Origin: Chloroflexota bacterium
GTDB taxonomy: Bacteria > Chloroflexota > UBA11872
Reading direction: 5' to 3'
Length of the DNA: 64,000 nt
Assembly: GCA_034422315.1 (NCBI GenBank)
Contig: DAOUJT010000006.1
Span: 5,911 to 69,910, forward strand
Positions within the stretch are counted from its first letter, which is position 1, and every line of letters begins with the position of its first letter. Positions 2,228-22,488 of the stretch are shown here, piece after piece. A program made the position numbers and the translations under genes. The notes below the pieces were generated by a model. The model saw nothing but the letters and a program-made list of their open reading frames with translations, made no database searches and had not been told where the DNA came from.

Positions 2228-2229
2228 AT

Positions 2230-4293: not shown

Positions 4294-4299
4294 GCGACC

Positions 4300-5313: not shown

Positions 5314-5367
5314 CTGCCCGATGCCGCGGGTGGCGGGACGCGAGGTAGGGCGGGCGCTAGCCGCGAC

Positions 5368-5799
5368 TCACTTTTGACCGACGGCGCGCCAGAGGTAGAG
5401 GCCGGCGCTGCCGGCGACCCAGGTGAAGAGTACGTCCATCCAGGGGAAGTGGTTGATGTGGGACTGGGCGGCGAGGCCGACTTCGTTCTCAGGGAAGAAG
5501 GTCCACAGCCAGTTCCAGAAGAAGATGATGATGAGGCCTGTGGACCCGAGAAGCAGCGCGGTGGCACCCAGGTACTCGCGGGTGACGGTGTCGTTGGGAC
5601 TGCCGTTGAGGCTGCGGACGCGGTGGTAGCTGATGAGCAGGGAGACAACTACGGCCACGGCCATGAACCAGTTGAGCGCTTGCCAGAGGGGGTACGTATC
5701 GCCGCCGTCGTGGTAGACGGGGGTGAGCATGAGGTTCAGCCCGACAGCGACGGCCACGACGATGAGGGCGACCGCGACAACTCGACAAACCTGATCCAT
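5368..5799 (-). CDS. Small polytopic membrane protein (about 4 TM). Hypothetical.
   Basis: Hydrophobic segments throughout. Internal Met start MDQVCRV preceded by GAGGAAG. The longer ORF upstream is Ser/Pro-rich shadow. Confidence 0.5.
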   Translation of the reverse strand: MDQVCRVVAVALIVVAVAVGLNLMLTPVYHDGGDTYPLWQALNWFMAVAVVVSLLISYHRVRSLNGSPNDTVTREYLGATALLLGSTGLIIIFFWNWLWTFFPENEVGLAAQSHINHFPWMDVLFTWVAGSAGLYLWRAVGQK

Positions 5800-5944
5800 T
5801 GGGCCGCTCACTTCCTCGACCAGGGGGTGAAGTCTGCTGCTGTTCGAGCGGGAGGGTAGCACCCGGGGTTCGGGTGCTTGGGGTATGAGAGAGAAGGCGG
5901 GATTCCTCGGCCCCGCTGCGCTGCGCTCGGAGTGACGGCTGGGG

Positions 5945-6322
5945 TTAGCCGAATGTTCCGTCGTTGCGCTGGTGGAGGATGACGGGGTTGCCCTCGGGAT
6001 CGGAGACGACAGCGAAACGGCAGGCGCCGGGGTCGACCGGCTCGACGACGACGCGAGCGCCGGATGTTCGGACGGTCTCAAGCACGGTATCCAGGCTGTC
6101 GCAGGCAAACGCAGCGGCGGGGCGCAGACCGGCGTCGCCCACCGCGACTGGCATTTCCTGCGATCCATCAAGGGCGACCGTGACGCCTCCGGCGTCGAAC
6201 TCGACCCACTGGTCACCGTACGCCTCGGCCGGTTGGAGTCCCAGCACGTCGCGGTAGAAGGTCACGGCGCGCTGCATGTCTTGCACGGGGTAGTAGAAGA
6301 AGTCGATGCCTCGGACAGGCAT
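5945..6322 (-). CDS. VOC family protein (glyoxalase / bleomycin-resistance fold).
   Basis: GIDFFYYPVQDMQRAVTFYRDVLGL...GARVVVEPVDP...AVVSDPEGNPVIL is a classic VOC betaalphabetabetabeta signature. Confidence 0.8.
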   Translation of the reverse strand: MPVRGIDFFYYPVQDMQRAVTFYRDVLGLQPAEAYGDQWVEFDAGGVTVALDGSQEMPVAVGDAGLRPAAAFACDSLDTVLETVRTSGARVVVEPVDPGACRFAVVSDPEGNPVILHQRNDGTFG

Positions 6323-6467
6323 AGCGGCTCCCACGGGGGTGTGGTGAATCGACCGTCAGCTTACCGAGGAACGGCGTGGACCCTTGACCGATGGGCGGCC
6401 AGCGGGATTCCGTCCGCGACGGAAGGGACGCCCGGTCGCCTTTCGCGGCGAGGGGCCGCCCGTGGGC

Positions 6468-7955
6468 TCAGTTGATGCGGAACTGTTCGGGGGCGCGGGT
6501 GAAGTTGACTTGCTGGCCGGCGGCAAGCACGGCGGTGAGGCCGCCGTTGGTTCTAATGCAACGCGCTTGGTCGGCTTTGGCGTCGGCGTCGGTGGCGCTT
6601 GGGTCGCAGATGGCGGCCAAGCGTCGGCGGAAGTCGGCAATGCGCTCCTGGTGTTCCGGCCGGTCGGCGAGGTTGGTCAACTCGTGGGGATCGGATTGCA
6701 TGTCGAAGAGTTGGGGGTCGTGGCCGACGAAGTGGATGTATTTCCAGCGCCGGTCTCGCAGTAGGTAGGTGGCGGAGGCGGAGCCGGTGGCGTGGTATTC
6801 GCTGAATACGGTGCGGTCGGCGGGCTCTTCGCCCGACGCCATCGACCACAAGTCAGTACCTGGCAGGTCCGCGTCCGCAGCGGCGGGTTCGACGCCGGTG
6901 CCGGCCATGATGGTGGGCGCGAGGTCAACCAGCGATACGGGGCAGTCGACTGAACGGCCGGCTGGCACGTCGGGTCCGGCCAGGATGAGGGGGACGGCGG
7001 CGGCGCTGTCGTACATGACGCTCTTGCCCCAGAGGCCATAGTCACCAAGGGTTTCGCCGTGGTCGCTGGTGTAGACGATGCGAGTGTCGTGAGCCAAGCC
7101 GGCGTCGCCGAGTGCGCCAAGGACATCCCCGATCAGCTCATCGACGAACGAGCACATGGCGTAGTAGACGAGGCGAGCGCGACGGATGGCGTCTTCGGAG
7201 CGGACGTCTGCCGCCGTTTGGATGCGCGCCTTTCGGAAGGCGGCCAACGGCGGATGCGTGGGCCACTGGTCCGGCGACCAGGCGATGGGCATGTCGATGT
7301 CGTCCAGCCGATAGCGGCGCTGATGATGCTCGGGGGCCGCGAATGGGAAATGGGGCAGGGTGAAGGACACGAACAGGCACCAGGGCTTGTCGTGCGTTTG
7401 CGCCTCGGTTTGGATCCAGCGCACGGCTTCGGCGGCGATGGCGGTGTCGTAGCGGATGTACTCGGAGTCGGTGTCGCCGGCATGGTCGACGTGGCCGAGC
7501 TGATAGCGGGTGACAGGCATGTTGGAGCGAAGGCAGCCGTAGACGTCCCCTATCCCGTGCATGACGTGCATGGGGATGCGCTGGTCGGGGAAGCCGATGT
7601 CGTCGGCGGTGTTGCGGTAGTGGAGCTTGCCGATGGTGGTGACGGCGTGGCCCTGTTCGAGGAGCCGATGCCCCCAGCTTTGCGCGGCGCCGCCGGTGTA
7701 GGGCGCGGCGTTATCCCAGGCGCGTATCTGATGGACGTAGCGGCCGGTGGCGAAGCTGGCGCGGGAGGGGACGCAGATGGGGGAGTTGCAGTAGGCGGTG
7801 GCGAATGAGGTACCGGCCGCAGCCAAGGCATCCAGGTTGGGTGTTTGCACCAGGGGATGGTCGGCGGAACCCAGCATGCGCGGGTTGTGCTCGTCGGACA
7901 TGAGAACCAGGAGGTTCTTGGGTTCCACAGCGTCTCCGGACTCAGGGGGTGGCAC
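6468..7955 (-). CDS. Cys-type sulfatase (arylsulfatase / choline-sulfatase family).
   Basis: Sulfatase signature CNSPICVPSRASFATGRY (C-x-P-x-R formylglycine motif) and an alkaline-phosphatase-like core. Confidence 0.85.
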   Translation of the reverse strand: MPPPESGDAVEPKNLLVLMSDEHNPRMLGSADHPLVQTPNLDALAAAGTSFATAYCNSPICVPSRASFATGRYVHQIRAWDNAAPYTGGAAQSWGHRLLEQGHAVTTIGKLHYRNTADDIGFPDQRIPMHVMHGIGDVYGCLRSNMPVTRYQLGHVDHAGDTDSEYIRYDTAIAAEAVRWIQTEAQTHDKPWCLFVSFTLPHFPFAAPEHHQRRYRLDDIDMPIAWSPDQWPTHPPLAAFRKARIQTAADVRSEDAIRRARLVYYAMCSFVDELIGDVLGALGDAGLAHDTRIVYTSDHGETLGDYGLWGKSVMYDSAAAVPLILAGPDVPAGRSVDCPVSLVDLAPTIMAGTGVEPAAADADLPGTDLWSMASGEEPADRTVFSEYHATGSASATYLLRDRRWKYIHFVGHDPQLFDMQSDPHELTNLADRPEHQERIADFRRRLAAICDPSATDADAKADQARCIRTNGGLTAVLAAGQQVNFTRAPEQFRIN

Positions 7956-8082: not shown

Positions 8083-9456
8083 CTAGCCGATGGGGCCCAC
8101 CGGGTTGGGATAGGTGTACCAGTCGGCCGCGGAGGAGTGGCTGAACGCGAACTGGACCTCGCCAGCGGCCCAGAGCGACCGGTCCTGCAGGTAGTTGTTG
8201 CTGAAGGCGATGCCCCGAACCTTCGAGATGTTCAGGTTCACACTGCGATGCCTCCAGTCCGACTTGTTACCCGGGTCCGTGACGGTGCCGGCCCGAACGA
8301 CCTTCCTGCTTATGTAGAGCCCCTTCTTTGTGGTTCCGACCGCGACGGTTCCGTCACGGGTGATATTGGGCGAAAGGGCAATCGTGTTGATGCGGCCCAA
8401 CTCATCCTTGTGATTCTCAATGACCTTCGAGAAGCTCTCGCCGGCATCCCTCGAGCGGTAGACGCCGTGCTGCACGGAACCGACAAAAATGATCGGTTTG
8501 CTGCGAAACTCGGGGTGGAAGGCGACGGCCGAAATAAGGAGATCGTTCGGCAAAGCCCCGCGACCAACCTGCGATCGGAAGCCTCGGCCATTGTTGTTGC
8601 TGCCGAGCAAGCTGGTGGAGGTCCAAGCAAAGACGTGCCTGGAGCTTCCGCGTCCATCGACCGCGGCCAATCCGAGGTACCGTCCGCGCGCCAAGCCGTT
8701 CCCATGCACAGCGGGCACGGGCGACCAGTTCGCCCCGCCGTCGGTGGATTCGAACAGTCCGCCGGCATCGGCAACGGCAAAGAAAGCGTTGTCAGTCTCG
8801 AATGCCGACGAAGCCGCCAAGCCTCCGATTCGACCGGCGGGAAGGCCCGACGCGACCATCCAAGTCTCACCGCGGTTCGTGGAGCGTGCCAGCCCGGCGT
8901 CCGTGGCAGCCAAGATCACGCCGTCGAGATTCACGTTCGGCGACGGCAGGATGGCATTGATGGTCAGATTGGGTAGCCCGCTGGTGACCTGATGAAAGTT
9001 GGCACCCGTATTTGTGGATCGGAGAACGCCGCCGGCGGAGGTGCCGAGCCAGATGTTCCCATCCTGGAAGACGAACGGCGAGGCGGCCATAACCGTGACT
9101 TCGCCGATCGGGGGTGAGGCGGGAAACGGCGCGGGCGCGGGCGCAGGGGCCGGCTGGGGCACAGGCGCAGGGGCCGGCGTGGGAATCGCCCAGGCGAAGG
9201 TTGACTGGACGTCGCTGCGATGGTCGTTCCGGCAAGCCTGCTCGGCCTGGTCGCCGAAGACGCGCTGATAGATGCCGACGTTCTGGCTGTTGCCCAAGTC
9301 GGCCTCGACGATGTCGTTTAGTTCCACACAACTGGTGGGCCACTGAGCCAAGGCTGGCGTGGCCACAAGCGCCAGCAGAAGAGCCGTGGCAAGCGCCGCG
9401 CCTGCGAACAGTCCGCGGACCGTGATTTGCCTGAAACTGGAGTGCCTAGCCAGCAT
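8083..9456 (-). CDS. Secreted BNR/Ycf48-like beta-propeller repeat protein with an N-terminal signal peptide and a PAPAPAP linker.
   Basis: Signal peptide LFAGAALATALLLALVATPALA. Repeated S-x-D-x-G-x-T/W BNR-like motifs (STNTGANF, STNRGETW, STDGGANW, SRDAGESF). Start chosen at MLARHSSF. Confidence 0.7.
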   Translation of the reverse strand: MLARHSSFRQITVRGLFAGAALATALLLALVATPALAQWPTSCVELNDIVEADLGNSQNVGIYQRVFGDQAEQACRNDHRSDVQSTFAWAIPTPAPAPVPQPAPAPAPAPFPASPPIGEVTVMAASPFVFQDGNIWLGTSAGGVLRSTNTGANFHQVTSGLPNLTINAILPSPNVNLDGVILAATDAGLARSTNRGETWMVASGLPAGRIGGLAASSAFETDNAFFAVADAGGLFESTDGGANWSPVPAVHGNGLARGRYLGLAAVDGRGSSRHVFAWTSTSLLGSNNNGRGFRSQVGRGALPNDLLISAVAFHPEFRSKPIIFVGSVQHGVYRSRDAGESFSKVIENHKDELGRINTIALSPNITRDGTVAVGTTKKGLYISRKVVRAGTVTDPGNKSDWRHRSVNLNISKVRGIAFSNNYLQDRSLWAAGEVQFAFSHSSAADWYTYPNPVGPIG

Positions 9457-9700
9457 GCGCCGTCTCCATGGATTACCCGGTAGACATAAGCATCGTAGCC
9501 GCAGGCTACCGGCATGGAAAGAGTAAAGGGCGCTAACTGGCAGGGTTACGGTGTTGATGGGGCGGTTAGTGCGGGTTGCGCGCCGTATCCCAATCGTATA
9601 CAATAGCGGTGTAGCGCTTCGGACCTGATCGATTCGGCCGGACGATCGGCGGTCAGTCGAAGCGGGGCCGTGGCGGCCCGCGTTGGGTGATCCGACGCCT

Positions 9701-10008: not shown

Positions 10009-10863
10009 GTGGCGATAACGAAGACCGATTCAATTGGCGACGTGGTGGACACGGTGATTGCCGAAGCCCGTCGCACGCAGATGCACCGCACGGTGATGGA
10101 ACCGCTGGTGCGGACCTATCGGGTCTCGCGCGGGGCTGGCGACCGGCTGGAGATTCCCAAGTTCGGGACGGTATCGGCCAGCGCTCTGACCGAGGGTGTG
10201 GACATGACGAACCCGCAGACGCTGACCACCAGCAAGATCACGATCACGCCCGCCGAGGTGGGTGCGCAGATCGTGCTGACGGACCGCGCGCTGCGGACGG
10301 CCAAGGAAGACATGGCCCGGGCGGCCGGGCGCGTGTTGGGCGATGCGATCGCCCGCAAGCTGGACAAGGACCTGCTGGGGCTGCTGGACGGCTTCAGCGC
10401 GTCGCTGGGCGGGGCCGGCCAGGACATTTCGATGGGCCACCTGCGGGCGGCGGTGTCGCGCCTGCACGGGGCGGCCGAACCGGCGCCGCAGCCGTTCCAC
10501 GCGGTGCTGCATCCGTACCAGGCGCACGACCTGGCGGCGGACATTTCGCCCACGGGCACCTATCCGGTGCCGGCCGGCATCTCGCAGACGGTGCTGGAAA
10601 ACCACTGGGTGGCGCGCGCATTCGGCGTGGATGTCTTCCAGGCCGGAAACCTGGCGGTGGACAGCAGCGACGACGCCAAGGGCGCGGTGTTCTCGAAGGA
10701 GGCGCTGGTGCTGGTGATGTTCAAGGACTGGGCCGTGGAACGCGAGCGCGACGCCTCGCTGCGGGCCTGGGAGTTGAACGTCGTGGCGGACTACGGCCTG
10801 GGCGAATACGCGGACGCCTGGGGCGTGGAGATGTACTTCGACGCGTCCACCCCGTCCAGCTAA
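10009..10863 (+). CDS. Phage major capsid-like protein (P22-coat / HK97-fold-like, 284 aa).
   Basis: The N-terminal pattern (…AEARRTQMHRTVMEPLVRTYRV.RGAGDRLEIPKFG…) resembles coat-protein families. It heads a co-directional structural operon that ends with a tail-fibre-like gene. Assigned by pattern memory, not by alignment. Confidence 0.5.
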   Translation: MAITKTDSIGDVVDTVIAEARRTQMHRTVMEPLVRTYRVSRGAGDRLEIPKFGTVSASALTEGVDMTNPQTLTTSKITITPAEVGAQIVLTDRALRTAKEDMARAAGRVLGDAIARKLDKDLLGLLDGFSASLGGAGQDISMGHLRAAVSRLHGAAEPAPQPFHAVLHPYQAHDLAADISPTGTYPVPAGISQTVLENHWVARAFGVDVFQAGNLAVDSSDDAKGAVFSKEALVLVMFKDWAVERERDASLRAWELNVVADYGLGEYADAWGVEMYFDASTPSS

Positions 10864-10895
10864 GGCTGGGCGATTCCAGGAGGAGGTAGCGGCAC

Positions 10896-11147
10896 ATGCA
10901 CGCTCCCATCATCTGGATCAGGCGCCGCCCGGCGCGGCGCCTGATCCACCGCTTTCCCGGCGCGGAGGGCGGACGCCAGATCCTGGTGATCACGCCGGAT
11001 CGCCAGGAAGCGCAGGACACGGCGCTGGCCATGCGCGAGCGCCAGGCGGCGCGGCTGCACGACCACGGTACAGCCGATCTGGACGCGCTGGACGCGCAGC
11101 GATCGGCCTGGGGCCGGCGCGGCGCCAAGCCCTCGGAGGCCAGCTGA
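10896..11147 (+). CDS. Small hypothetical protein (83 aa) within the phage-like module.
   Basis: Strong SD GGAGGAGG upstream. Its stop overlaps the next start (TGATG). Confidence 0.5.
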   Translation: MHAPIIWIRRRPARRLIHRFPGAEGGRQILVITPDRQEAQDTALAMRERQAARLHDHGTADLDALDAQRSAWGRRGAKPSEAS

Positions 11148-12370
11148 TGAGCGTGACGAGGCGCGCCTTGCGCCATCGAATCGCACAGCGGCTGGCGCCG
11201 TTTCTGACAGGGATGGCGGACGGCGGGTCTATGGTGACGCTGGTCGACCCGGCGCGGCTCCAGGACTCGACGGCATCCGCCGACCTGTGGACCGATAGCT
11301 GGGTCCACCTGCTTGATGGTCCAAGCGCAGGCGAAACCCGGCGCGTGGCGGCCTACGATCCGGCGGATGGCTCGGTAACGGTCAGCCGGGCGTTTCCCCG
11401 CTCGGTCGACGCTGGGTCGTCCTATGAACTCTCGCGGCTGGTTGGGCCCGACGTGATCAACGGGGCCATCGACGCCACGCTCGCGCGCTGTTGGTTCCAG
11501 ACGCTTTCGCCATTGAGCATGCTGGCCGACGGCGCCATGGAACGCCGGGACACGCGGGCCTGGCGTACCTGGAACGCAGACGCGGCCAAAGTGGCGGCCG
11601 GCTCGGACGCGGCCAGCGGAGCCGCGAGCCTGGAAGTGACCACGACGGCGGCGGGCGGTTACGCGGCCTCAACCACGCTGGCCGTGCTGCCGGGCCAGCC
11701 GTACACGCTGGAAGCGTCATTGGCGCCGGGCGGGTCTACGGCGCGACTGGCGGTTCACAACCTGACCGGCAGCGTTGACCTGGACACCGTCACGGCCACG
11801 GGCCGGGCCTGGCAGCGGGTGCGCCTGACGTTCGTGATTCCCGAAGGATGCGAAGAGATCGAGGTCCGCCTGGGCGCCGCAGAGGCGGGGGCGGCGAACC
11901 TTTGGGACGAGGTGGTCCTGCTAGCGGCCGGCCGCCGCCGGTTCCCACTGCCCGCCTGGATCACGCACCGCCAGCAAGTGGTGGAGGTCTGGCGGCGGGC
12001 GGCGGCCCACCCACAGCGGGTGATGTCGGCGGTGACCTGGTGGCGAACCACGGCCAACCCAGGGCCGGCGGGGCCGGAATTGTGGCTGGAAGCGGACCCG
12101 CCGCCCAGCCTGGGCGAGACGCTGCTGATCGAAGGGCTGCGGGCCTACGACCCGCTGGCCAGCGATGACGCCGTGACCGACGCCCCGGTGGACTGGGTGG
12201 TGCAAGGGGCACTGGTGGAGGTCTACCGCCACCTGCACCGCGACGCGCCGGCCGGCGACGTGGCGCGCTACGCAGCCTTGCAACGCGACGCCGCGCTGGA
12301 GTTCCAGCAGCTTTCCCGCCTCTACCGCCCGCGCGCCACTCGACGGGTGATGCTGGGGGGAGGTTGGTAA
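11147..12370 (+). CDS. Hypothetical structural protein (407 aa) of the phage-like module.
   Basis: Translationally coupled on both sides. No recognised family. Confidence 0.55.
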   Translation: MSVTRRALRHRIAQRLAPFLTGMADGGSMVTLVDPARLQDSTASADLWTDSWVHLLDGPSAGETRRVAAYDPADGSVTVSRAFPRSVDAGSSYELSRLVGPDVINGAIDATLARCWFQTLSPLSMLADGAMERRDTRAWRTWNADAAKVAAGSDAASGAASLEVTTTAAGGYAASTTLAVLPGQPYTLEASLAPGGSTARLAVHNLTGSVDLDTVTATGRAWQRVRLTFVIPEGCEEIEVRLGAAEAGAANLWDEVVLLAAGRRRFPLPAWITHRQQVVEVWRRAAAHPQRVMSAVTWWRTTANPGPAGPELWLEADPPPSLGETLLIEGLRAYDPLASDDAVTDAPVDWVVQGALVEVYRHLHRDAPAGDVARYAALQRDAALEFQQLSRLYRPRATRRVMLGGGW

Positions 12371-14749
12371 ATGCCACGCGGCAATCGCCCGCCCTATCCC
12401 TACGACTGCATGGTGGACGGGACGGGCCTGATGCTCAGCACCGGGGCCGAAGGCACGATGGCCTGGCACGAGCGCAAGCTGGATTTCTTTGCGCCGCGCG
12501 TCAGCCAGACCGACCAGTCCTATGCCCAGTTCCCGCCAGAAGACGAGACGACATGGGCGGTAGACGACCTCTCCGGCGGGTATGGCCAGCGGGTCGTTCC
12601 GCGCAGCGGGTCCACCGGCTACGCCCACGGGCTGGCCGACACGCGCATCCCACACCAGGTCACCCTGCCGCCGGACGTCGTGACAACGCCGATTACGTCG
12701 TCGGGAACGATTACGGACCACTTCGAACTGGACGACGCCATCTACGTGCTGGTGGGGTCCGCCGTCTACCGCTCGCGGGACGGCCGGACCTGGACGCTGG
12801 CCAAGGCGTTCGAGCCAGGAGTTACGGCGACGTCCGCCGCGGTCTTCAAGGGACGCGCGGAGCGGCCGATGGCCTTCGTGGGCGTAGGCGGCTCGGCGGC
12901 CGAGGAGCCGTTCTGGACGTTCGACGGCACGACCTGGACGCAGCACGCCGGTCAGCGCGCCAACCCGACGGCGGTGCTGCGAACCGGCGACAGCGGTCAA
13001 ACGTACGCCGATCTCACCGAGGCCGTCAGCGATGCGGACGCGGGGACGTACGGGCACCTGGACTCGCTGGGCGCGGTGCACGACGGCGCCTGGCTGCTGG
13101 TGGGAGGCAAGGCGCCGTTCGCGGCGGTGGCCATCGAGATGAACGTCGCCGCGAATGGCAACGCGACCGATCTGGCAGCGGAGTATTGGAACGGCTCGGT
13201 CTGGACGACCGTGGGCGGGCTAAGCGACGGCACGGCACAGGACGACAAAACGTTGGCCCGTGACGGCGAACTGAGGTTCGAGGAACCGGCGGGCTGGCGG
13301 CGGACGACGATTAACGGGATGGAGGCCTTCTGGCTGCGGCTGACCGTTGCGTCGGCGCTGGACTCCTCAACCCGCATCAACGAACTGGCGGTACGCGAAG
13401 TCCGCAAGGCCGACGCGTTTCTGGTGATCGGTTCGCGGGTGGCGCGGGTGAGCCGAGAGACTGGCGCGCCCAGGCTGTCGATCTCAATGGACGGTGGGTC
13501 GGCTTCCACCTGGACAGACGGCGCACCGGTGGGCGACGGCGCGTCCACCGCCAATGCGCTCCTGCGTCTGGGCGGCACGGCCTACGTGGTGAAGGAAGAC
13601 GGCCTCTACGCGCTGCGACCCGGCGCTGAAAGCGGCGCGGTGGCGGAGCACGTGTGGTCACAGCGGGCCCGGCATTCAAGTCCGCATAGCGGCCGCGGCG
13701 CCGCGGCCTGGCGCGGCTATCTGTGGCTCCCGATGGCGCAGGGGCTTTATCGATTCCGGTCAGGCGACCTGACGCCCACCGGCCCGGAACGTCTGCGCGA
13801 AAACAACTCGCCGATCCGGGGCCGCATCACCGCCTGCGCCGGCGACGCTCACTTCCTGTATGCAGCGCTGCGAGACGAGACCGGGCACACCACGCTGCTG
13901 GCGTTCAATCCCGACCAGCAGTCCTGGCATCCCCTGGCGCAGCTTGGGCGGGTGGACTGCCGGCACATGTGGGTGTCGGACCGGCCGGGGCCGAACCCGC
14001 GGTTGTACCTGGGGATCGGCGGATCGCTGGCCACGATCGTGCTGCCGCGGGGTTCGGCTAATCCGCTGCACGACCCCAACTGTCGCTTCGCGGCCAGCGC
14101 GGAGGTGTACCTTTCGCGCTTCGACGCGGCGTTCGCAGCGCAGCCCAAGGCCTTCCTGGCCCTGACGCTGAGCGGCGAGCGGCTGACGGCGTCCACCTGG
14201 GTGGATGCGGCCTACCGGCTGGCCGACGGCGCGCCGTTCAAACAACTGGGACGCTTTGCCGCCAGCGGTCAGCGCATCGAGTTTGGGCCGGAGGCCGCGG
14301 CGATGGCCATTGACCTGCGGCTGACGCTGCATAGCGACGACCCCGCGACTACGCCGGTAGTCCACGCAGTCTCGCTGGCTTACGCCATTCGCGCGGATTT
14401 CAAGCGGGTGTTTCAGTTCGTGGCGCGGATCGCGGACCAGACGCCGCTGCGCGACGGACGCCGCGACCGGCGGTCGGGCCGCGCGATCAAGCAGGCCATC
14501 GCCGCCGCGGCGGCCACGCGTGAGCCGGTGGTGCTGGTCAGCCCGGACGGTGAGCACATCGAAGCGCTGGTCCGCGGAGCCGAAGCCCAGGGGCGTCGCA
14601 GCGAGGCCGGGCGCGACCTGGAATGGCTGATGCCCGTGACCGCCACCGAATACCGGTCAACCGCCGGCACCGGCACGCACAACCGACTGGCGGCTTATGC
14701 CCACCAGGCCCAGGCCGCCTATCTGCATACCCAACTCGCCAGGCTCTAG
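12371..14749 (+). CDS. Large hypothetical structural protein (792 aa), possibly tail or tubular protein.
   Basis: Its ATG directly abuts the preceding stop. Size and position between capsid and tail fibre. No recognised motifs. Confidence 0.55.
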   Translation: MPRGNRPPYPYDCMVDGTGLMLSTGAEGTMAWHERKLDFFAPRVSQTDQSYAQFPPEDETTWAVDDLSGGYGQRVVPRSGSTGYAHGLADTRIPHQVTLPPDVVTTPITSSGTITDHFELDDAIYVLVGSAVYRSRDGRTWTLAKAFEPGVTATSAAVFKGRAERPMAFVGVGGSAAEEPFWTFDGTTWTQHAGQRANPTAVLRTGDSGQTYADLTEAVSDADAGTYGHLDSLGAVHDGAWLLVGGKAPFAAVAIEMNVAANGNATDLAAEYWNGSVWTTVGGLSDGTAQDDKTLARDGELRFEEPAGWRRTTINGMEAFWLRLTVASALDSSTRINELAVREVRKADAFLVIGSRVARVSRETGAPRLSISMDGGSASTWTDGAPVGDGASTANALLRLGGTAYVVKEDGLYALRPGAESGAVAEHVWSQRARHSSPHSGRGAAAWRGYLWLPMAQGLYRFRSGDLTPTGPERLRENNSPIRGRITACAGDAHFLYAALRDETGHTTLLAFNPDQQSWHPLAQLGRVDCRHMWVSDRPGPNPRLYLGIGGSLATIVLPRGSANPLHDPNCRFAASAEVYLSRFDAAFAAQPKAFLALTLSGERLTASTWVDAAYRLADGAPFKQLGRFAASGQRIEFGPEAAAMAIDLRLTLHSDDPATTPVVHAVSLAYAIRADFKRVFQFVARIADQTPLRDGRRDRRSGRAIKQAIAAAAATREPVVLVSPDGEHIEALVRGAEAQGRRSEAGRDLEWLMPVTATEYRSTAGTGTHNRLAAYAHQAQAAYLHTQLARL

Positions 14750-14760
14750 GAGGCCCCTGT

Positions 14761-15813
14761 ATGGCAACAACCACGGCGAACCTGCGGCTGACGAAGCCGC
14801 TGGGCGCCGAGCGATACGACATCAATGTGTTCAACAACAACGCCGACCTGATCGACGCCGGCTTCCACGCCACGACCGGGCACGACCACTCCGGCAGGGC
14901 GGGCGAAGGCCCTCAACTGACGGAGGCGGCGCTGGCCGCAGGCGCGGTGACGACGGCCAAGCTGGCGCCGGACACCTTCCACGCCGAGCAGTTTCACAAC
15001 GCGCTGCCGAACGGCGACTTCGAGTCGTGGTCGGCCGGCGGAACGGCGGCGCCGGACGGCTGGGCGCTGGCCGGCAATGCGGCCCGGGTCGCGCGCGCGA
15101 CCTCCGTCGTCAAGCACGGGCGCTATGCGGCCTCGCTGACGCGGCGGGGCGCCGACTGCGATCTGCGCCGCGGCCTGGCCGACGACCTGGGCGGGCTGAC
15201 TTACCTGCGCGGGCGTACGTTCACCCTGGGCGGTTGGGTCTACGCGACCGTTCCCAATCGAGCGCGGCTGGAACTGGGCGACGGCGTAACCACGTCCATC
15301 TCGGCCTATCACTCCGGAAGTTCGGCCTGGGAGTGGCTGACCGCGACGATCGTGGCGGATAGCGCGGCGCCGGCGCTGCTGGCGCTCTGCAAGCTCAAGC
15401 AGGGCGACACCACGGCCTGGTTCGACGGGCTGCAGGTGGCCGAAGGCACGCTGGCACCGGCGTTTACGCCCAACCCGCTGGACCAAGCCCTGCGCCTGAC
15501 CAACTTCCAAGACAGCACGCCAGCCAACCACGTGGACCGGGGACAGTGGCGGGCGGAGGTTGGGATGGCCTCGGTGGCGGGCGTGACCTCGCAGAACTGG
15601 TCGGATCTTGACGTGACGTTCGAGACGGCTTTCCGCACGGTCTACGCGGCCCTGGCCACGCCACGCGAGGACATTGGCGGGCGCCGCGTGATTGCGCGCT
15701 GCACCAACCTGCGCGTCAACGGCTTCACCCTGCAAGCCGCCACCGGGGACGCGCGCAATTTCAGCAACACCACGCCGGGCCTGGTCTATTGGCTGGCGAT
15801 TGGAGCGGTGTGA
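14761..15813 (+). CDS. Phage tail-fibre-like / minor structural protein with a conserved N-terminal MATTTANLxLTKP...YD...N.N.D.ID motif.
   Basis: Characteristic N-terminus shared by many prophage tail-fibre proteins. SD TAGGAGG upstream. The C-terminal part is Gly/Ala/Thr-rich and beta-rich. Confidence 0.65.
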   Translation: MATTTANLRLTKPLGAERYDINVFNNNADLIDAGFHATTGHDHSGRAGEGPQLTEAALAAGAVTTAKLAPDTFHAEQFHNALPNGDFESWSAGGTAAPDGWALAGNAARVARATSVVKHGRYAASLTRRGADCDLRRGLADDLGGLTYLRGRTFTLGGWVYATVPNRARLELGDGVTTSISAYHSGSSAWEWLTATIVADSAAPALLALCKLKQGDTTAWFDGLQVAEGTLAPAFTPNPLDQALRLTNFQDSTPANHVDRGQWRAEVGMASVAGVTSQNWSDLDVTFETAFRTVYAALATPREDIGGRRVIARCTNLRVNGFTLQAATGDARNFSNTTPGLVYWLAIGAV

Positions 15814-16163
15814 TGGGAGTCCCCGACCAGCCCGGCTCAATGGAGCCGAGTTCATTCGACGCGCCGGCCGACGCAAGTCCCAGCATTGACATGGATCACC
15901 CGAAGGAGGAACGAGCTTTGGAACCCGAAACCATTGGCATCATCACGGCCGTGACCGTGTATCTCGCGCGCGTGGTGCGCAACGAGATGGTGCGCTGGCG
16001 CAGCCGCGCCCGCGGCACCGACTCGGAAACTCGCGCGTTGCAGCTGCTGGAAAACATCGACCGCAGCCTGATGACGCATCACACCGAAATGACGCGCTAC
16101 CAGGCGTCGATCGCGGACTCGCTGGGCCAGATCAAAGGCCGGCTGGCCCAGGGACGCGTCTAG
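15813..16163 (+). CDS. Small protein (116 aa) with one hydrophobic helix (TIGIITAVTVYLARVV). Possible holin-like or membrane-active protein.
   Basis: TGATG overlap with the tail-fibre gene. Last gene before the terminator hairpins. Confidence 0.4.
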   Translation: MGVPDQPGSMEPSSFDAPADASPSIDMDHPKEERALEPETIGIITAVTVYLARVVRNEMVRWRSRARGTDSETRALQLLENIDRSLMTHHTEMTRYQASIADSLGQIKGRLAQGRV

Positions 16164-16231: not shown

Positions 16232-16345
16232 CGGTCGTTAGAGCGGCGAATCAACGCTTCACGGAACGCCGGGGGCGGTCGGCGCCGTAGTAGGCTCAAG
16301 CGGCCGCGCAACGCGGCGCGGCGCAGCCCCAAGGAAGGGGCGGCG

Positions 16346-17977
16346 ATGGTCGGTATCCGAGGCCGAACCACGCGCGCCACGGGGCGCTTCTTTGGCTTGG
16401 CTGGCGCGACCCTGCTGACCGTCGTCTTGCTGGCCTGCGGCGCCGACGGGCACGAACCGGGCGCGACCGATCTGGCAGCGGTTGCCGCCGTCGTCGACCG
16501 GTTGGGCGCCTCCGACGATCCGCAACAGGAGTTTGCCGAACTTCCGGCTGAAACCCGCCAATCGGTCATTGACTACCTGAGGCTCGAAGAGACGGAGTCG
16601 TCTGGCGGCGGCGGTCCCACGACCCCGATCAACGCGCCGGAAAACTGCGAACGGCAGGCATCGGGGTACGTGGCTCGCAACGCGCACGGGCGCGAGCTCT
16701 GGACGTACGAGTCCATTACCGAGTGGTGCTGGGCCGACGGGATCATTACCACGGCGCCGGTCTTCACGGTCAACGCGAAGATCCATGCTCCCCTGTGGGA
16801 ATTCGCCGGCCACGTCGAACGGGAGGAATCCGGCGGCCAAGGCGAGGCGGAGCACAGCGACGTGGCGGAGGGTCTGTTCCGGCTCTGCCCGGAGGCTCCA
16901 GACAGTTGCGTTCAGGACGAAAGCGTTCGGGTCAAGAAACGGCAAGACGGCGACGGCGGATACGGCTCGGAGACCTCCGACATCGACCACAGCCCCGAAC
17001 CGTCAGGCCCTTGGACCCGCCCAGGGTATTACCTGGCGTTCCTCGTCTATATCCCGCTGGCCGCCACGCCGCTGATTGCCGGGGACGTCATGCGCCGGAA
17101 GTCGCCGCGCGGTTCCGCCGCCTGGGGGCTGGGGGTCGTGGCCACCGCCCTGGGCGTGCTGGTCTCGCTGTACGTCGCCGTGATGGTGGTCTATACGGCG
17201 ATCTTCAGCATCGGGTCGTTGTTCGGCTCGGATTCGACATCGGTGTCAATGACAACGAGCGTCGAGCGGGTCGAGGTGATGGAGGTCCCGATCGAGGAAA
17301 CGGTGGTGGCGCCGGTGGAGACGCCGGCGGTCGGGGGACAACCCGGAAGCTCGGCAGCGGCCAGTGGGCAATCCGGCGCCGCACCGCCGCCCAGAGATTC
17401 CGCAGGGCCAGGGCCGCGCGCCGACGAATGCACGGATCACGAGGTCAGGCTGACGGCGCGCAACCTATTCGGCCAGCCGGTGTGGAGCTACCGATCCGGA
17501 ACCTGGTGGTGTTGGGACGGGGTGGAGATTACGGACGAGCCCAACGTTTCCACGTGGACCTTGTCGCAGGGTCTGTTCTGGAACCCCGTGGACGACAATA
17601 CCGAGGAGTACGGCGGCCAGGGCGAGTGGACGCATAGGGACACGGTCTACCTGACCTTCGAACTCTGCGTCCCGTTGATTGGATGCACTCAGCGCGACAA
17701 TCAGTTGCTTCGAAAGTCCCAGCACGCCGACGGAACGTCCGCCGTCGACGACTTGCCAAGGCAGGATTCATATCCAGCCGCTTTGTTCTCGCTGATTGGT
17801 CCGCTGGTAGTGGCCCTGACGCTGCTGGTTATCGGTCGGGTGCTGCGGCGGGGCGCCGAACGCGGTGCGCTGGCCTGGGGGTTCGGCGTCAGCGCCACGT
17901 CGCTGGGAGTCTTGATGCTGACGCTCCTCGTTGTCACGGGGCTGTTCTTCGTAGCGGCCAGCCATACGGTGGGATAA
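16346..17977 (+). CDS. Lipoprotein or membrane protein carrying two copies of a W-x-[YF]-x-S-x-T-WCW-x-G Cys-containing domain. Each copy is followed by an R-rich/GS-AWG-GV TM segment.
   Basis: Lipobox LLAC after the signal peptide. Internal duplication: ELWTYESITEWCWADG... and PVWSYRSGTWWCWDG.... Each copy is followed by RR..RGSAAWG(L/F)GV..LGVL TM helices. Confidence 0.6.
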   Translation: MVGIRGRTTRATGRFFGLAGATLLTVVLLACGADGHEPGATDLAAVAAVVDRLGASDDPQQEFAELPAETRQSVIDYLRLEETESSGGGGPTTPINAPENCERQASGYVARNAHGRELWTYESITEWCWADGIITTAPVFTVNAKIHAPLWEFAGHVEREESGGQGEAEHSDVAEGLFRLCPEAPDSCVQDESVRVKKRQDGDGGYGSETSDIDHSPEPSGPWTRPGYYLAFLVYIPLAATPLIAGDVMRRKSPRGSAAWGLGVVATALGVLVSLYVAVMVVYTAIFSIGSLFGSDSTSVSMTTSVERVEVMEVPIEETVVAPVETPAVGGQPGSSAAASGQSGAAPPPRDSAGPGPRADECTDHEVRLTARNLFGQPVWSYRSGTWWCWDGVEITDEPNVSTWTLSQGLFWNPVDDNTEEYGGQGEWTHRDTVYLTFELCVPLIGCTQRDNQLLRKSQHADGTSAVDDLPRQDSYPAALFSLIGPLVVALTLLVIGRVLRRGAERGALAWGFGVSATSLGVLMLTLLVVTGLFFVAASHTVG

Positions 17978-18041
17978 GTCATGCCCAAACCCCGTGGACC
18001 GTGCCGCAACGCAACTCCAGGCAGGGTGGAGGAGCGAGGTA

Positions 18042-19166
18042 ATGCCAGCCGGGCCTGAGCCGCTGCTGGCGGGTATCGCCTACACCCTGCTGATCGTCGT
18101 CCCAATCTGCGCGGCGGCTTTTATCGCGGGGTGGGTACTCCGTCGGTCGGGCGGGCACGAGTCGCTGGTCTGGGGGTTGGGCGTCATCGTCACGGCTTGG
18201 GGCGCCGCCCTGGCCCTTGAGCATGGTCTGCGGATCCTGATCTTCGAAGCTCGGCTGTTTCCAGTCAGTGGGGTGACTATCACCGTGCTTTACTTCCCCC
18301 TGACCAACGCGATCCCACCGATTGTCGCGGCGCTCGGCGCGGGTGTGGTCATGTTGAAAGCGGCGGAGCGAGGCTCGACGACCTGGGCGCTTGGCGTTGT
18401 TGGCGTGGCCTTTGGTGCAGTTGGCCTTGTCAGGGCAATCGCCCCTGTGGCGATCTACCTGCCGACGGCTATTGGATCGCTGGGATTGGGATCCGTTGTC
18501 GAAGTCGAGACCGTGGTCACAGAGATTTCGGTTGAGGAATTCGACGCGCGATCCGCGTATAGGGACAGGGTGACGGTTGAGGACGGCGTGTGTGAGGTGC
18601 ATCGCCGGGGGATCGAAGGCCACAACCTGATCGGGCAGCGGCTGTGGACGTTTCACTCAGAGACACGGTGGTGCTGGAACGGCCGCGAAGTCGGCGCCGA
18701 CCCATCGTACTCGCCCACAGTCAGCGCCTCCGTGGATTCTCACATTCCCTTCGTAAGGGGTGGCTTTCCCGTGGATCCATCGCCTAACGATTCCGAGCTT
18801 CCCTGGGAGCTCGGCGACTGGGCGACCCAAGTCATCCACGTGTGCCCGCCGTTGCTGGAATGCGTGCAAAACGCATATGCGACCGTAGAAAAGCGCCAGT
18901 TTTCGGATGGGTCGACCACTGTGGACTACCCAAGTCTGACGGACCACTCGCAGCGCAGTCCCTGGCACCCGGTGCTGGGCCTGCTGCCTTCGATTGTCAT
19001 AAGTACGACGGCGCTGGTTACCGGTTGGATCCTGCTACGACGGTCCCGGCGCGGATCGGCGGCCTGGGGATTCGGTGTCGTCGCTGTTGGGCTGGGAGTG
19101 CTGGTCCCGATCCTGGTTGTTGTGGTCGGCGTGTTTTTCCTGACGACCAGCTACACCGTGTTTTAG
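18042..19166 (+). CDS. Paralogous membrane protein with one WCW Cys domain and three copies of the R..GS..WG.GV TM motif.
   Basis: RLWTFHSETRWCWNG. C-terminus LRRSRRGSAAWGFGVVAVGLGVLV...TTSYTVF nearly identical in pattern to the upstream gene's C-terminus ...AASHTVG. GGAGG SD. Confidence 0.6.
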   Translation: MPAGPEPLLAGIAYTLLIVVPICAAAFIAGWVLRRSGGHESLVWGLGVIVTAWGAALALEHGLRILIFEARLFPVSGVTITVLYFPLTNAIPPIVAALGAGVVMLKAAERGSTTWALGVVGVAFGAVGLVRAIAPVAIYLPTAIGSLGLGSVVEVETVVTEISVEEFDARSAYRDRVTVEDGVCEVHRRGIEGHNLIGQRLWTFHSETRWCWNGREVGADPSYSPTVSASVDSHIPFVRGGFPVDPSPNDSELPWELGDWATQVIHVCPPLLECVQNAYATVEKRQFSDGSTTVDYPSLTDHSQRSPWHPVLGLLPSIVISTTALVTGWILLRRSRRGSAAWGFGVVAVGLGVLVPILVVVVGVFFLTTSYTVF

Positions 19167-19595
19167 CGAGTCGCGGCCGCAACCCCAGGACGCGCCCAGC
19201 GCCAGCGCAGACAGGACAGGCCAAAACAGACCGGGGAGGGGCAGGCAGCCTTTGCGGGCAGGTTGGTCCGGGACGATGTCGGATGGGAAGTGGCCGGGAT
19301 AACGCTCCTGTAGGTCGGCGTTGGTGGCGATGGGGGTGAGGCGCAGGCCGGGTTTGTGTTCGAGGACGTACCAGGCGACGGGTGGACGACGGCGGCGGTC
19401 GGTGACGCGCGGCGACGTGGTTTCGACGGCGCGTGGATGAACATCCGCGGCAGGCTGCCAGCGCAGCAGGGCGGTGCGCTCGTCGAGTTGGGAGCGGGTG
19501 ATCAGTTCGATTCGGCAGTCGTCGAACTGGCTGCGCAGGAAGCGCGCCTCAGCGCTGTCGAAGTCACCGACCAGTTCGACCGACCTGTCGCGCAT
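19035..19595 (-). CDS. Hypothetical protein translationally coupled to tsaC. Its 3' end overlaps the convergent membrane-protein gene by ~130 bp, so the C-terminal extent is uncertain.
   Basis: ATGA start/stop overlap with tsaC. No recognised family. Confidence 0.4.
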   Translation of the reverse strand: MRDRSVELVGDFDSAEARFLRSQFDDCRIELITRSQLDERTALLRWQPAADVHPRAVETTSPRVTDRRRRPPVAWYVLEHKPGLRLTPIATNADLQERYPGHFPSDIVPDQPARKGCLPLPGLFWPVLSALALGASWGCGRDSLKHGVAGRQEKHADHNNQDRDQHSQPNSDDTESPGRRSAPGPS

Positions 19596-20218
19596 CAGTG
19601 GGGAGGCATGGGCGGGCGGACGGCGGGGACCACGGCCTGAATGGTCGGTGCGTCCACGGCGCCGGCGCGCAGGATCAGCGGGGGATCCTGCGCAAGGTCG
19701 ATCACGGTTGAGGGCGCGCCGGCCCCCGGGCCGCCATCCAACACCAGGTCCACCAGGGTTCCCACCGCGTCGGCGGCCGCCTGGGCGGTCATGGGCGGCG
19801 GCTCGGTGTGCAGATTGGCGCTGGTGCCCGTAAGCGGGGAACCGACGAGGCGTATCAGTTCGCGCACCACGCCGGAAGCGGGAACGCGGACGCCGACCGT
19901 TTCGCCAGGGCCAAGCAGCCGCCGGTCAACGCCCGGGCGGGCCGGCAGCACCAGCGTGACGGCGCCTGGCCAGAAGGCTTGAGCGAGGCGATGGGCGTTG
20001 GGCGACATGTGGGCGATCTCGCGAGCCTGGGCCGCGCTCTCGACAAGGATCGGGATGCCCCCGCCGGGGCCGCGGGTCTTGATGCGAAGGACGCGCGCCA
20101 CGGCCGGGGGGACGCGGATACTGGCGGCCAATCCGTAGAGGGTGTCCGTTGGGATGGCGGCAACCCCGCCGTCAGCCAGCAGTCTGGCGCACCGAGTTAC
20201 CGCAACTGTCGACGCCAT
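19595..20218 (-). CDS. tsaC: L-threonylcarbamoyladenylate synthase (YrdC/TsaC/Sua5 family).
   Basis: AIPTDTLYGLAASI...GPGGGIPILVE...WPGAVTLVLPA...SPLTGTSANLHTEPP is the YrdC domain signature. Confidence 0.85.
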   Translation of the reverse strand: MASTVAVTRCARLLADGGVAAIPTDTLYGLAASIRVPPAVARVLRIKTRGPGGGIPILVESAAQAREIAHMSPNAHRLAQAFWPGAVTLVLPARPGVDRRLLGPGETVGVRVPASGVVRELIRLVGSPLTGTSANLHTEPPPMTAQAAADAVGTLVDLVLDGGPGAGAPSTVIDLAQDPPLILRAGAVDAPTIQAVVPAVRPPMPPH

Positions 20219-20726
20219 CCCGTCACGCAGGGGGCGCGGCGTCAGGCGGGTTGAACTGTCCAGCCATGAGGGTGGGCCAGTGAACTCCTCAGCACGTCGA
20301 ATGGTCAGTCGCCGGTCGCGCACCGGCCGGGCGGCAGCGGTGCCGCCATGCCAGATGATATTTCGCGCCGGGCCACGACCGTTGAATGGAAGCCGACCAC
20401 CCGGGTGTGTCGTCAGGACGACGCGGCACGGTCGTTGCCGTGCACCCCGGGGACACAGGTTTCTGCTAGGCTACGCGAACCTATTCGCAAGTTGGCGGTG
20501 CTGCCGTCCGCACAAGGCCAAACCGTTCTGCCTACGATGCCGATATCAAATACTGAGATACACGTCTCGGGCAATGATGTCGTGGGCGTTACGGTCGTCA
20601 ATGGGCCCGTGGGCAGTAGTGGCCTCGAACTCTGCGCGGCCTGGGCCCGCGAAACGCTGTCGCGTCCGACGATGACCTCGGCCCCACGCGTAGGAGACTG
20701 CTGGAGCAGGCAAGGAGACGAACCCC

Positions 20727-21071
20727 ATGAGCGTTAGCACCGAGTGGGCGTGGAACGATGAAGCCATCGTGGTCACCGCGGATGGCCGGGTGGACGGTAC
20801 CAACGCCCGCGATTTCCAGAGTGCCCTGGAGGCCGTGATCGAGGCCAGCGACCAGGCAGTGATTCTGGACATGGAGCGGCTGACGTACATCAGCAGTGCG
20901 GGGCTGCGGGTGATCCTGCTGGCGGCGAAGTCGCTGCAGCGCAAGGACGCCACGCTTACCATCTGCTCGCTGTCGGATCCGATCCGCGAGATCTTCAGCG
21001 TGAGCGGCTTCGACCAGATCATCCCCATTCACGCCACCCAGGCCGAAGCGCTCGCCGCCCGCAAGAGCTGA
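20727..21071 (+). CDS. STAS-domain anti-sigma-factor antagonist (SpoIIAA/RsbV-like).
   Basis: ILDMERLTYISSAGLRVIL...VSGFDQIIPIHAT is a typical STAS domain with a phosphorylatable Ser. Confidence 0.8.
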   Translation: MSVSTEWAWNDEAIVVTADGRVDGTNARDFQSALEAVIEASDQAVILDMERLTYISSAGLRVILLAAKSLQRKDATLTICSLSDPIREIFSVSGFDQIIPIHATQAEALAARKS

Positions 21072-21185: not shown

Positions 21186-21530
21186 GTGAAGCTGAGTGTG
21201 GTGAACGTTACGGGGAACGGGGTGATGGTCGTCGCGATCGAGGGCCGAGTCGATAGTTCCAACGCCCAGCGGTTTGAGCGGGTGCTGGATGCCGTGGCGG
21301 ACGCCGGCAAGCGGGGGATCGTCCTGGACCTGGAGAACCTGACGTACATCAGCAGTGCGGCGCTGCGCGTGCTGCTGGGACTCACCAAGGCCCAGGCGCG
21401 GAAAGGCGGCACCCTCACGGTCTGCACCGTGCCGGAGTCCCTGCGCAAGGTTCTCGAGGTGAGCGGCTTCGATCAGATCATTCCCGTGCATGACTCCCAG
21501 GCCGAGGCTTTGGCCGCATGTTCAAGCTAG
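21186..21530 (+). CDS. Second STAS-domain anti-sigma-factor antagonist paralog.
   Basis: VLDLENLTYISSAALRVLL...VSGFDQIIPVHDS. Confidence 0.8.
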   Translation: MKLSVVNVTGNGVMVVAIEGRVDSSNAQRFERVLDAVADAGKRGIVLDLENLTYISSAALRVLLGLTKAQARKGGTLTVCTVPESLRKVLEVSGFDQIIPVHDSQAEALAACSS

Positions 21531-21591
21531 CAATCACCGATACCACGACGGCGGCGCCCGATCCGGGCCATTCCCTCGCGAACCTGGCGGC

Positions 21592-22488
21592 GTGACCGTG
21601 GACGCGGGGTCCCCATCGAAAATCCTGGTTGTCGACGACGAGGCTGACCTTGAGGTGCTGATGCGCCAGCGGATGCGCCGGAGCATCCGAAAGGGCCAGT
21701 TTGAGTTTGTGTTTGCCCGCAACGGCGTGGAAGCGCTGGCGCGGCTACGGGAGAACGACTTTGACGTAGTTCTCTCGGATATCAACATGCCAGAGATGGA
21801 CGGACTGACCCTGCTCCAGCAGATTCCGGATGTGGATCCGGAGGTGCGATCGGTGATCGTTACGGCCTACGGCGATATCGACAACATCCGATCGGCCTTG
21901 AACCGCGGAGCGTTTGACTTCATCACCAAGCCCATCGACTTCCGGGACTTGCGCGCCACGATTGAGCGGGCCCTGGAGCACCGGGCGCTCCTGCGCAGCG
22001 CGACGGAGTCGAGTGGCGACGGCCGGGTGGAAACTGCCAACGACCGACGGGCGATGGCCGGTGCCCCGGTGCTGATCCACATGGAGCACGATGGCATGTA
22101 CGCGGATGACGCGGATGAGGGCAGGCCGCCGGCGAGGAGTGGCATCAAGATTTCGGTGCTCAATGCAACCCCGGACGGAGCCGTCGTAGTTGCGCTGGAA
22201 GGGCGCGTGGACGCCAACACCGTGCGGCAATTCGAACGCGCCATCAACGTGGTGAGCAAGGCTTGCAAACTGGCCATGATTCTCGACTGCCGAAAGCTCG
22301 ACTACATCAGCAGCGCCGGGCTTCGCGTGGTGCTGGGGCTGTCCAAGTCCCTTCGACAAAAAGGGGCCGAGTTGGGCCTTTGCGCGGTGACCGAGCCGGT
22401 CCGCAAGGTCTTCAATGTGAGCGGCTTCGATCAGATCATTCCCGTGCGTGACACTCAGGCCGAGGCGCTGACCGCATGTGCAAGTTGA
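21592..22488 (+). CDS. Response-regulator receiver domain fused to a C-terminal STAS domain.
   Basis: REC: KILVVDDEADLE...VVLSDINMPEMDGLTLLQ...AYGD...GAFDFITKP. C-terminal STAS: LDCRKLDYISSAGLRVVLG...VSGFDQIIPV. GTG start inferred. Confidence 0.75.
   Translation: MTVDAGSPSKILVVDDEADLEVLMRQRMRRSIRKGQFEFVFARNGVEALARLRENDFDVVLSDINMPEMDGLTLLQQIPDVDPEVRSVIVTAYGDIDNIRSALNRGAFDFITKPIDFRDLRATIERALEHRALLRSATESSGDGRVETANDRRAMAGAPVLIHMEHDGMYADDADEGRPPARSGIKISVLNATPDGAVVVALEGRVDANTVRQFERAINVVSKACKLAMILDCRKLDYISSAGLRVVLGLSKSLRQKGAELGLCAVTEPVRKVFNVSGFDQIIPVRDTQAEALTACAS

Follow-up and report, generated by a model that had tools for sequence, protein, structure and literature searches.

Paralogous membrane proteins with repeated four-cysteine domains beside a phage-like gene cluster in a Chloroflexota bacterium

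The DNA considered here, called the window, is a 64,000-nucleotide stretch of a Chloroflexota genome (assembly GCA_034422315.1, contig DAOUJT010000006.1, positions 5,911 to 69,910 of the forward strand). Within it, just after a group of phage-like genes, lie two forward-strand genes, A and B, that encode paralogous membrane proteins (BLASTP E=7e-20, 30% identity over 331 columns). Both contain a cysteine domain with the motif W-[TS]-[YF]-x-S-x-T-x-WCW-x-G, which occurs twice in A and once in B (A127, A388 and B226), as an earlier, sequence-only reading of this DNA had proposed; there are no extra copies elsewhere in the 64-kb window. That reading put the domain at about 70 amino acids (aa). 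Its motif and cysteine pairs hold, but the domain is larger, about 120–135 aa, with four cysteines at fixed spacing in each copy: the first lies 27 residues before the WCW cysteine, and the last two are 5–6 residues apart. The three window domains (D1 and D2 in A, D3 in B) are mutually 34–37% identical, and the four cysteines are invariant across 19 domain copies from relatives. An E-x-GG-x-G motif kept by D1, D2 and most family members is absent from D3.

The domains alternate with five hairpins of two transmembrane (TM) segments, two in A and three in B, each with an Arg-rich loop of the form RRxxRGSxAWGxGV. This element had been taken for a single, near-identical helix following each domain copy. 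Its repetition is borne out by the five copies, but hydropathy shows the membrane unit to be a two-helix hairpin, in which the Arg-rich/AWGxGV element covers the loop and the beginning of helix two, and near-identity applies to the loop motif only, since whole hairpins are mutually 28–47% identical. A hairpin hidden Markov model (HMM) finds all five in the window with per-domain E-values of 1.8e-18 to 2.6e-29, and they correspond to a DNA repeat family (also numbered D1) of five register copies at 62–70% identity. The positive-inside rule, together with the need for the Cys domains to lie outside, suggests that the loops are cytoplasmic and the domains extracytoplasmic. Recurrent sub-threshold matches of the hairpins to DUF7649, DUF308 and PepSY_TM were treated as hydrophobic noise.

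The open reading frame (ORF) that holds gene A is open from 16211, and its ATG start at 16346 is preceded by a Shine-Dalgarno sequence, AAGGAAGGGG, at 16331–16340. The protein carries the typical signal of a bacterial lipoprotein, MVGIRGRTTRATGRFFGLAGATLLTVVLLAC: its n-region is basic, its core is hydrophobic and it has a lipobox of the form [LVI]-x-[AGS]-C. The lipobox had been recognised before; it ends at Cys31 and is kept, as (V/L)LLAC, in most of the A- and C-type homologues described below. The earlier idea of an extracytoplasmic Cys-stabilised domain on a multi-helix anchor is supported. For gene B, the GTG listed as start (17994) would give 390 aa and an in-frame ATG at 18042 would give 374 aa. 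The ATG is the more likely start, because GGAGGAG at 18028–18034 lies 7 nucleotides (nt) upstream of it and makes a good Shine-Dalgarno for 18042 only. A convergent 186-aa ORF (19035–19595, reverse strand) overlaps the last 132 nt of B. It is called at 131–186 aa in relatives, with 66–96% aa identity and no family match, and the overlapping C-terminal tail may not be real.

Table 1. Coordinates of the features discussed (window positions unless a locus is named).
Feature	Coordinates	Strand	Description
Gene A	16346..17977	+	543 aa; lipoprotein signal, helical region, D1, hairpin, linker, D2, hairpin
Signal peptide of A	16346..16438	+	N-terminus; lipobox LLAC, Cys31
Three short helices of A	16472..16579	+	motif L..A.DP..F..L....Q.AV.DYL; same fold as D1; modelled helices H12-24, H28-33, H37-47
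Domain D1	16589..16984	+	eight long antiparallel strands (model); Cys101/128/181/188; WCW at 127-129
Hairpin a of A	17021..17233	+	2 TM; loop MRRKSPRGSAAWGLGV, predicted cytoplasmic
Domain D2	17411..17770	+	Cys362/389/441/447; WCW at 388-390; Val/Glu-rich linker ahead
Hairpin b of A	17768..17974	+	2 TM; loop RVLRRGAERGALAWGFGV; protein A would end at the outer membrane face
Gene B	17994..19166 or 18042..19166	+	hairpin, hairpin, D3, hairpin
Hairpin 1 of B	18069..18221	+	loop VLRRSGGHESLVWGLGV
Hairpin 2 of B	18276..18473	+	loop MLKAAERGSTTWALGV
Domain D3	18573..18947	+	Cys200/227/284/290; WCW at 226-228
Hairpin 3 of B	18969..19163	+	loop LLRRSRRGSAAWGFGV
Stem-loop	16196..16232	+	perfect, 15-16 base pairs; inverted repeat 100% complementary; directly past the last phage-like gene, whose stop is 16161-16163
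Six-gene phage-derived cluster	10009-16163	+	order and lengths conserved in at least 10 loci
Capsid-like gene	10009-10863	+	284 aa; Phage_capsid_4, 43 bits; major-head PHROGs
Cluster gene	10896-11147	+	83 aa
Cluster gene	11147-12370	+	407 aa; matches no known family
Cluster gene	12371-14749	+	792 aa; matches no known family
Tail-fibre-like gene	14761-15813	+	350 aa
Cluster gene	~15789-16163	+	~110 aa; stop 16161-16163
Lysin/holin-like cassette, locus L013	13438-15552		
Lysin/holin-like cassette, locus L014	12341-15650		

The WCW domain belongs to a large family that matches none of the catalogues searched. When its profile was run exhaustively with HMMER, 319 representatives, each standing for a cluster at 50% identity, scored E<=1e-3, and 89 of them E<=1e-10; a word-indexed homologue search had given 18 clusters, the deep alignment used as query gave 28 proteins, and a first metagenome scan gave none. 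Most members are proteins of about 200 aa in which an N-terminal signal peptide and a short helical stretch precede a C-terminal 4-Cys domain, and the helical-region motif of A (Table 1) is common to them. Since these members share the signal, the helical motif and the domain, we read the first 216 residues of A as a complete copy of the ~200-aa unit. Family members carry only the name 'hypothetical protein' at source, and their loci span 40–71% GC. In locus L025, a WCW-family gene follows archaeal-type genes for ribosomal proteins L24, S4e and L5 (translations read by eye), and the family thus seems to extend to Archaea; the genes in question lie at 24–2386 and 2908–3717, where the WCW-family gene is accompanied by a 98-aa hairpin ORF.

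The suggestion that no characterised family carries the WCW signature survived every search made. Proteins A and B had no match in Pfam or NCBIfam (E<=1), PHROGs (E<=0.01) or PADLOC (E<=0.1), and scans of A, B, the isolated hairpins, the miniproteins described below and 108 relatives against these four collections gave nothing above threshold. No Pfam family was common to the 108 members and no NCBIfam family to a set of 18. The domain profile found nothing below E=1 among PDB sequences, and the literature searched held nothing relevant.

An AlphaFold2 (AF2) model of residues 32–216 of A, made with a 108-sequence alignment (model residue + 31 gives the residue in A), reached pLDDT 93.8 and pTM 0.86. 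It consists of three helices and then eight antiparallel strands of 8–14 residues. In the model C101 opens strand 2 and C128 closes the neighbouring strand 3, and C181 and C188 lie on either side of the strand 6–7 turn; this placement would fit disulfides between the first and second and between the third and fourth cysteines. Taking a known fold to require a significant Foldseek E-value or a TM-score above 0.5, none was found in PDB (best E=0.03, TM-score<=0.41) or in BFVD (best E=0.014, TM-score<=0.32 among the top-ranked hits), where a 71-residue target at rank 39 gave 0.56 when normalised on its own length. Foldseek with a first, domain-only model (pLDDT 72) returned noise only. Weak BPI/Takeout-like and NTF2-like matches of that first model had raised the idea of a lipid-binding fold; they were not convincingly repeated with the confident model, and the idea was dropped. 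The architecture of domains and hairpins is well supported, as is the existence of an uncatalogued family, whose fold is possibly new. Because the positions conserved in at least 90% of the family are Cys, Trp, Gly and Phe, the domain looks more like a scaffold or binding domain than an obvious enzyme.

Small extracytoplasmic alpha/beta domains that alternate with TM segments are also a feature of PepSY/PepSY_TM (PF03929) proteins, which A and B resemble in this respect. Unlike PepSY, the ectodomain has no Pfam match, is about twice as large and has four cysteines, and neither the window hairpins nor the other miniproteins match PepSY_TM; one stand-alone miniprotein, from L024, scored 26.0 bits against a gathering threshold of 28.8.

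The stand-alone relatives offer a key clue to the architecture in the window. A small ORF with two TM segments follows the domain gene in nine of the 11 stand-alone loci, at distances from an overlap to about 40 nt (70 aa in L006, 66 aa in L007, 68 aa in L015, 103 aa in L017, 83 aa in L020, up to 114 aa in L021/22 and 98 aa in L024/25); L018 has no such ORF downstream of its domain gene and L023 is too short to judge. The 66-aa ORF of L007 (8636–8836, forward strand) begins 3 nt past the stop of a soluble WCW-family gene and was not called by the source; partner miniproteins can thus be missed by source annotation. Elsewhere the two parts are fused, with the domain ahead of the hairpin in P0044, P0034 and P0021 and the hairpin ahead of the domain in P0046, P0058 and P0082, and P0048 is a fragment of a multi-unit protein (for P0021 and P0044 the surrounding sequence was not long or good enough to be used). 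All these hairpins follow a common plan of TM1, basic loop, aromatic residue, [LV]G and TM2, and hhalign aligned the window-clade hairpins to the others at P=0.0014 over 47 collinear columns, against P=0.019–0.63 for six controls (one reversed, five column-shuffled). The adjacency of the two parts in divergent lineages, combined with independent fusions, argues that domain and hairpin work as one physical module. That the window proteins are tandem covalent fusions of this two-gene cassette is reasonably supported.

Named relatives from the word-indexed search and all four GTDB hits are Chloroflexota metagenome-assembled genomes; bin names such as RHO3_bin_23 and SB0662_bin_61 suggest that some come from sponges. 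Hairpin/domain repeats are present in every homologue, which speaks against the lineage-specific artefact that the sequence-only reading had kept in view. The relatives fall into three architectures. A-type proteins have a lipoprotein signal, domain, hairpin, domain and hairpin; C-type proteins of about 595 aa have a lipoprotein signal, domain, two hairpins, domain and hairpin; and B-type proteins, like gene B itself, resemble the C body minus the lipoprotein signal and first domain. A and B occur together in the window, L005, L009, L010 and L012, A with a frameshifted C in L001/L011, and C alone in L002 and L003/4. The flanks keep their order: a capsid-like gene, genes of 83, 407, 792 and 350 aa, a ~110-aa gene and the WCW gene or genes, followed by the convergent ~186-aa ORF, Sua5/TsaC and a STAS/SpoIIE partner-switching block.

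A orthologues are 66–98% identical. The dN/dS ratio is 0.29–0.34 for A and 0.25–0.45 for B (0.68 for B against L009, where dS is only 0.05), compared with 0.05–0.13 for the capsid, about 0.2 for the 792-aa gene and 0.16–0.21 for Sua5. With ratios near 0.3, above those of their neighbours, the WCW genes are real, constrained genes and yet the fastest-evolving in the locus. Among A-type proteins, mean pairwise identity is 0.82 in D1, 0.74–0.82 in the hairpins, 0.69 in D2 and 0.66 in the linker. Gene B has moreover been exchanged as a whole. Against L010, nucleotide identity is 58–63% exactly across B and 83–94% in the flanks; against L009 it is 96–97% in B and about 90–93% in the flanks. The corresponding dS exceeds 1 against L010 and L005 and is 0.05 against L009. 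This is clean allelic replacement, and B behaves as a swappable cassette of which two ancient types exist, one in the window, L009 and L012 and the other in L005, L010 and P0020 (window 17800–19300 compared).

The capsid-like product of the adjoining cluster is, judged by its matches, a genuine phage-type major capsid protein; a 41% identical relative lies on a 66-kb IMG/VR contig that has nothing else in common with the window. PDB sequence searches with the 407-, 792- and 350-aa proteins were uninformative. We recognised neither a terminase nor a portal or integrase gene anywhere in the window. Capsids are 93–97% identical in aa across genomes whose Sua5 is only 74–92% identical to that of the window, and given this and the preserved gene order and lengths we read the cluster as a domesticated remnant, possibly like a gene transfer agent. 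Two distant clusters, L013 and L014 (52–59% identity in the 792-aa protein), are without WCW genes. Their genes at the corresponding position encode small coiled-coil/TM proteins together with a Peptidase_M23 (+SLT) protein of 325–335 aa and a holin-like protein of 84–86 aa with two TM segments, none of which shows sequence similarity to A or B. About 6 kb upstream of the L013 cluster, with cellular genes in between, is a 440-aa ORF with a weak Terminase_3C match.

Between the cluster and gene A stands a perfect stem-loop. Its region folds with dG -59 kcal/mol (z -5.8), a stability that none of 200 shuffled versions matched; the stem-loop is GC-rich and has no T-run. Perfect hairpins of 14–15 base pairs are found in the same spacer of L005 (same sequence type), L010 and L012 (different sequence). 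The stem-loop is probably a terminator or unit boundary upstream of A. Our conclusion is that A and B are a unit apart from the cluster, one that in a single clade took the place of its lysis cassette or was inserted where that cassette lay.

Taken together, we suspect that A and B are a membrane-tethered, polymorphic surface module derived from a two-component cassette, a reading that is about as likely as not; the function itself is conjecture. In this scenario the two genes would form a unit bounded by the stem-loop upstream and convergent genes downstream, and their products would be polytopic proteins in the cytoplasmic membrane of a sponge-associated Chloroflexota bacterium, with all three domains facing outward and the hairpin loops in the cytoplasm. 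The hairpins may do more than anchor, since they match D1 in conservation and abound in small-residue packing motifs: they would probably dock the ectodomains and assemble A with B into a bundle of about 10 helices. The ectodomains would bind something in the envelope or the environment. The module would be cellular, a cassette that settled at the end of the domesticated, phage-derived cluster, and not a structural part of a phage, and because gene content varies and the B allele has been swapped it could, more speculatively, be a polymorphic surface determinant.

Several points weigh against this picture. No homologue, motif or structural match that bears a function was found, and a ligand-binding or scaffold role is therefore conjecture; topology and disulfides are themselves predictions. 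The homology of fused hairpins and miniproteins is statistically weak: an HMM from the window-clade hairpins misses the stand-alone miniproteins at E<=10, and the hhalign result is only suggestive. The gene-pair rule is based on 11 loci. Throughout the clade, the genes also stay on the same strand beside the phage-like cluster, which a functional link would predict likewise.

If the surface-module reading is right, it describes an uncatalogued family, perhaps with a new fold, of at least 319 clusters at 50% identity in bacteria and on at least one archaeal contig. Adjacency and independent fusions would then indicate an obligate small membrane partner, a clue to mechanism. The proteins would offer a test case for the membrane tethering of secreted proteins in Chloroflexota, whose envelope is poorly understood, and the locus would be a hypervariable surface locus in sponge symbionts beside a strongly conserved capsid/tail-fibre cluster. 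If the function proves trivial, say that of a structural component of the envelope, what is gained is no more than the annotation of a new domain of unknown function.

A phage-linked function had been proposed from position, and one form of it is that A and B are morons of an ancestral prophage, acting in superinfection exclusion or receptor masking like the exclusion factors encoded beside tail-fibre genes. Phages do encode exclusion lipoproteins and membrane proteins, such as Llp of T5 and Cor of phi80 and N15, and A and B share with them a lipoprotein signal (in A), a probable envelope location and a place beside tail-fibre-type genes at the end of a structural module. Their site is a typical one for morons: in every member of the clade they come next after the tail-fibre-like gene and a small gene, in the same orientation; their fast evolution relative to their neighbours, the replacement of the B allele and the varying locus content are what an arms race predicts. 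We nevertheless consider this role unlikely. No sequence or fold similarity to such factors was found, and A and B are polytopic proteins of 374–543 aa with repeated domains. Such a gene would be expected within (pro)phages and to recur in viral collections; the family was not found in BFVD, PHROGs or PADLOC, nor in IMG/VR, where the scans were pattern-based and distant relatives would be missed. Most members are non-phage, ~200-aa secreted proteins, and the stand-alone ones sit in ordinary chromosomal contexts. The distant cluster copies lack the genes, the stem-loop separates them from the cluster, and, with no such gene as terminase, portal or integrase recognised in the window, there is no evident active phage with competitors to exclude. 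The proposed link to phage was therefore not supported.

A broader proposal starts from a two-component module, so far unrecognised, that would be widespread in the envelopes of bacteria and archaea and would pair a secreted disulfide protein of new fold with its own dedicated 2-TM partner. In sponge-symbiont Chloroflexota the two parts would have been fused and multiplied, and a domesticated cluster for phage-derived particles would have taken them up where its lysis cassette had been; there the module would determine, in polymorphic form, how particles are released, targeted or excluded. This combination strikes us as distinctly improbable.

The gene pairs of the stand-alone relatives also recall bacteriocins with small membrane immunity genes, as in class II and lactococcin-972-type loci. 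The window genes would then be degenerate or tethered derivatives of a secreted toxin and its 2-TM immunity protein. A secreted, Cys-stabilised and probably disulfide-bonded protein followed by a small hydrophobic ORF (66–114 aa in this case) is the classic layout, seen in nine of 11 stand-alone loci; the L007 pair adjoins an ABC ATPase and an extracytoplasmic function (ECF) sigma factor, and alleles are polymorphic. However, domain and hairpin form a single chain in the window and in at least six further cluster representatives. Such fusions arose repeatedly, in either order and as tandem copies, and they would leave a toxin bound both to its antidote and to the membrane of the cell that makes it. 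No Pfam bacteriocin or immunity family, nor any other such family, is matched, the conserved positions are mostly structural (Cys, Trp, Gly, Phe), and an ABC neighbour occurs at one locus only. We rate a toxin and its antidote as very unlikely.

Much the same can be said of an extracytoplasmic sensor, in which a signal bound by the ectodomains would pass through the hairpins to cytoplasmic partners, for example the STAS/SpoIIE/anti-sigma kinase partner-switching module nearby. The basic cytoplasmic loop with RGSxAWG is highly conserved, a block of STAS, response regulator-SpoIIE, HATPase_c_2, binding-protein and histidine-kinase genes lies 1.5 kb downstream in all clade members, and an ECF sigma/anti-sigma pair is found beside one stand-alone member. 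Yet the predicted cytoplasmic loops are only about 9 residues long and carry no output domain, two convergent genes lie between A/B and the signalling block, and the stand-alone members have no consistent signalling neighbour; a sensor would be a surprise.

Finally, A and B might act in lysis or in the release of phage-derived particles, as spanin- or holin-like membrane disruptors that replaced the M23/SLT lysin and 2-TM holin-like gene found in this slot in L013 and L014. That position speaks for it, as do the N-terminal lipobox and C-terminal TM segments of A, which recall T1 gp11-type unimolecular spanins. Even so, the role is most improbable: the window cluster has no endolysin and the clade no lysin partner, and A and B are 3–5 times larger than holins or spanins (~70–200 aa) and carry repeated disulfide domains. 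Class II holins have the reverse of the N-out/C-out topology predicted for the hairpins, most family members are soluble secreted proteins with no link to phages, and A and B do not resemble the L013/L014 cassette in sequence.

The wider surroundings of the locus are largely cellular. Positions 1–6400 of the window hold no recognisable phage genes apart from an ORF for a HicB-like antitoxin (4300–4692, forward strand; phrog_497, E=3.6e-15), the only mobile-element-type gene in that part. Upstream of the cluster are reverse-strand genes for a sulfatase (6468–7955) and a BNR/Sortilin-like protein (8083–9603). Downstream of B, Sua5/TsaC (19595–20323, reverse strand) is followed on the forward strand by two STAS genes (20727–21071 and 21186–21530) and by a 332-aa ORF (21490–22488) that aligns with a response-regulator-STAS protein of relatives, in which the block goes on with SpoIIE, an anti-sigma kinase, a binding protein and a histidine kinase.

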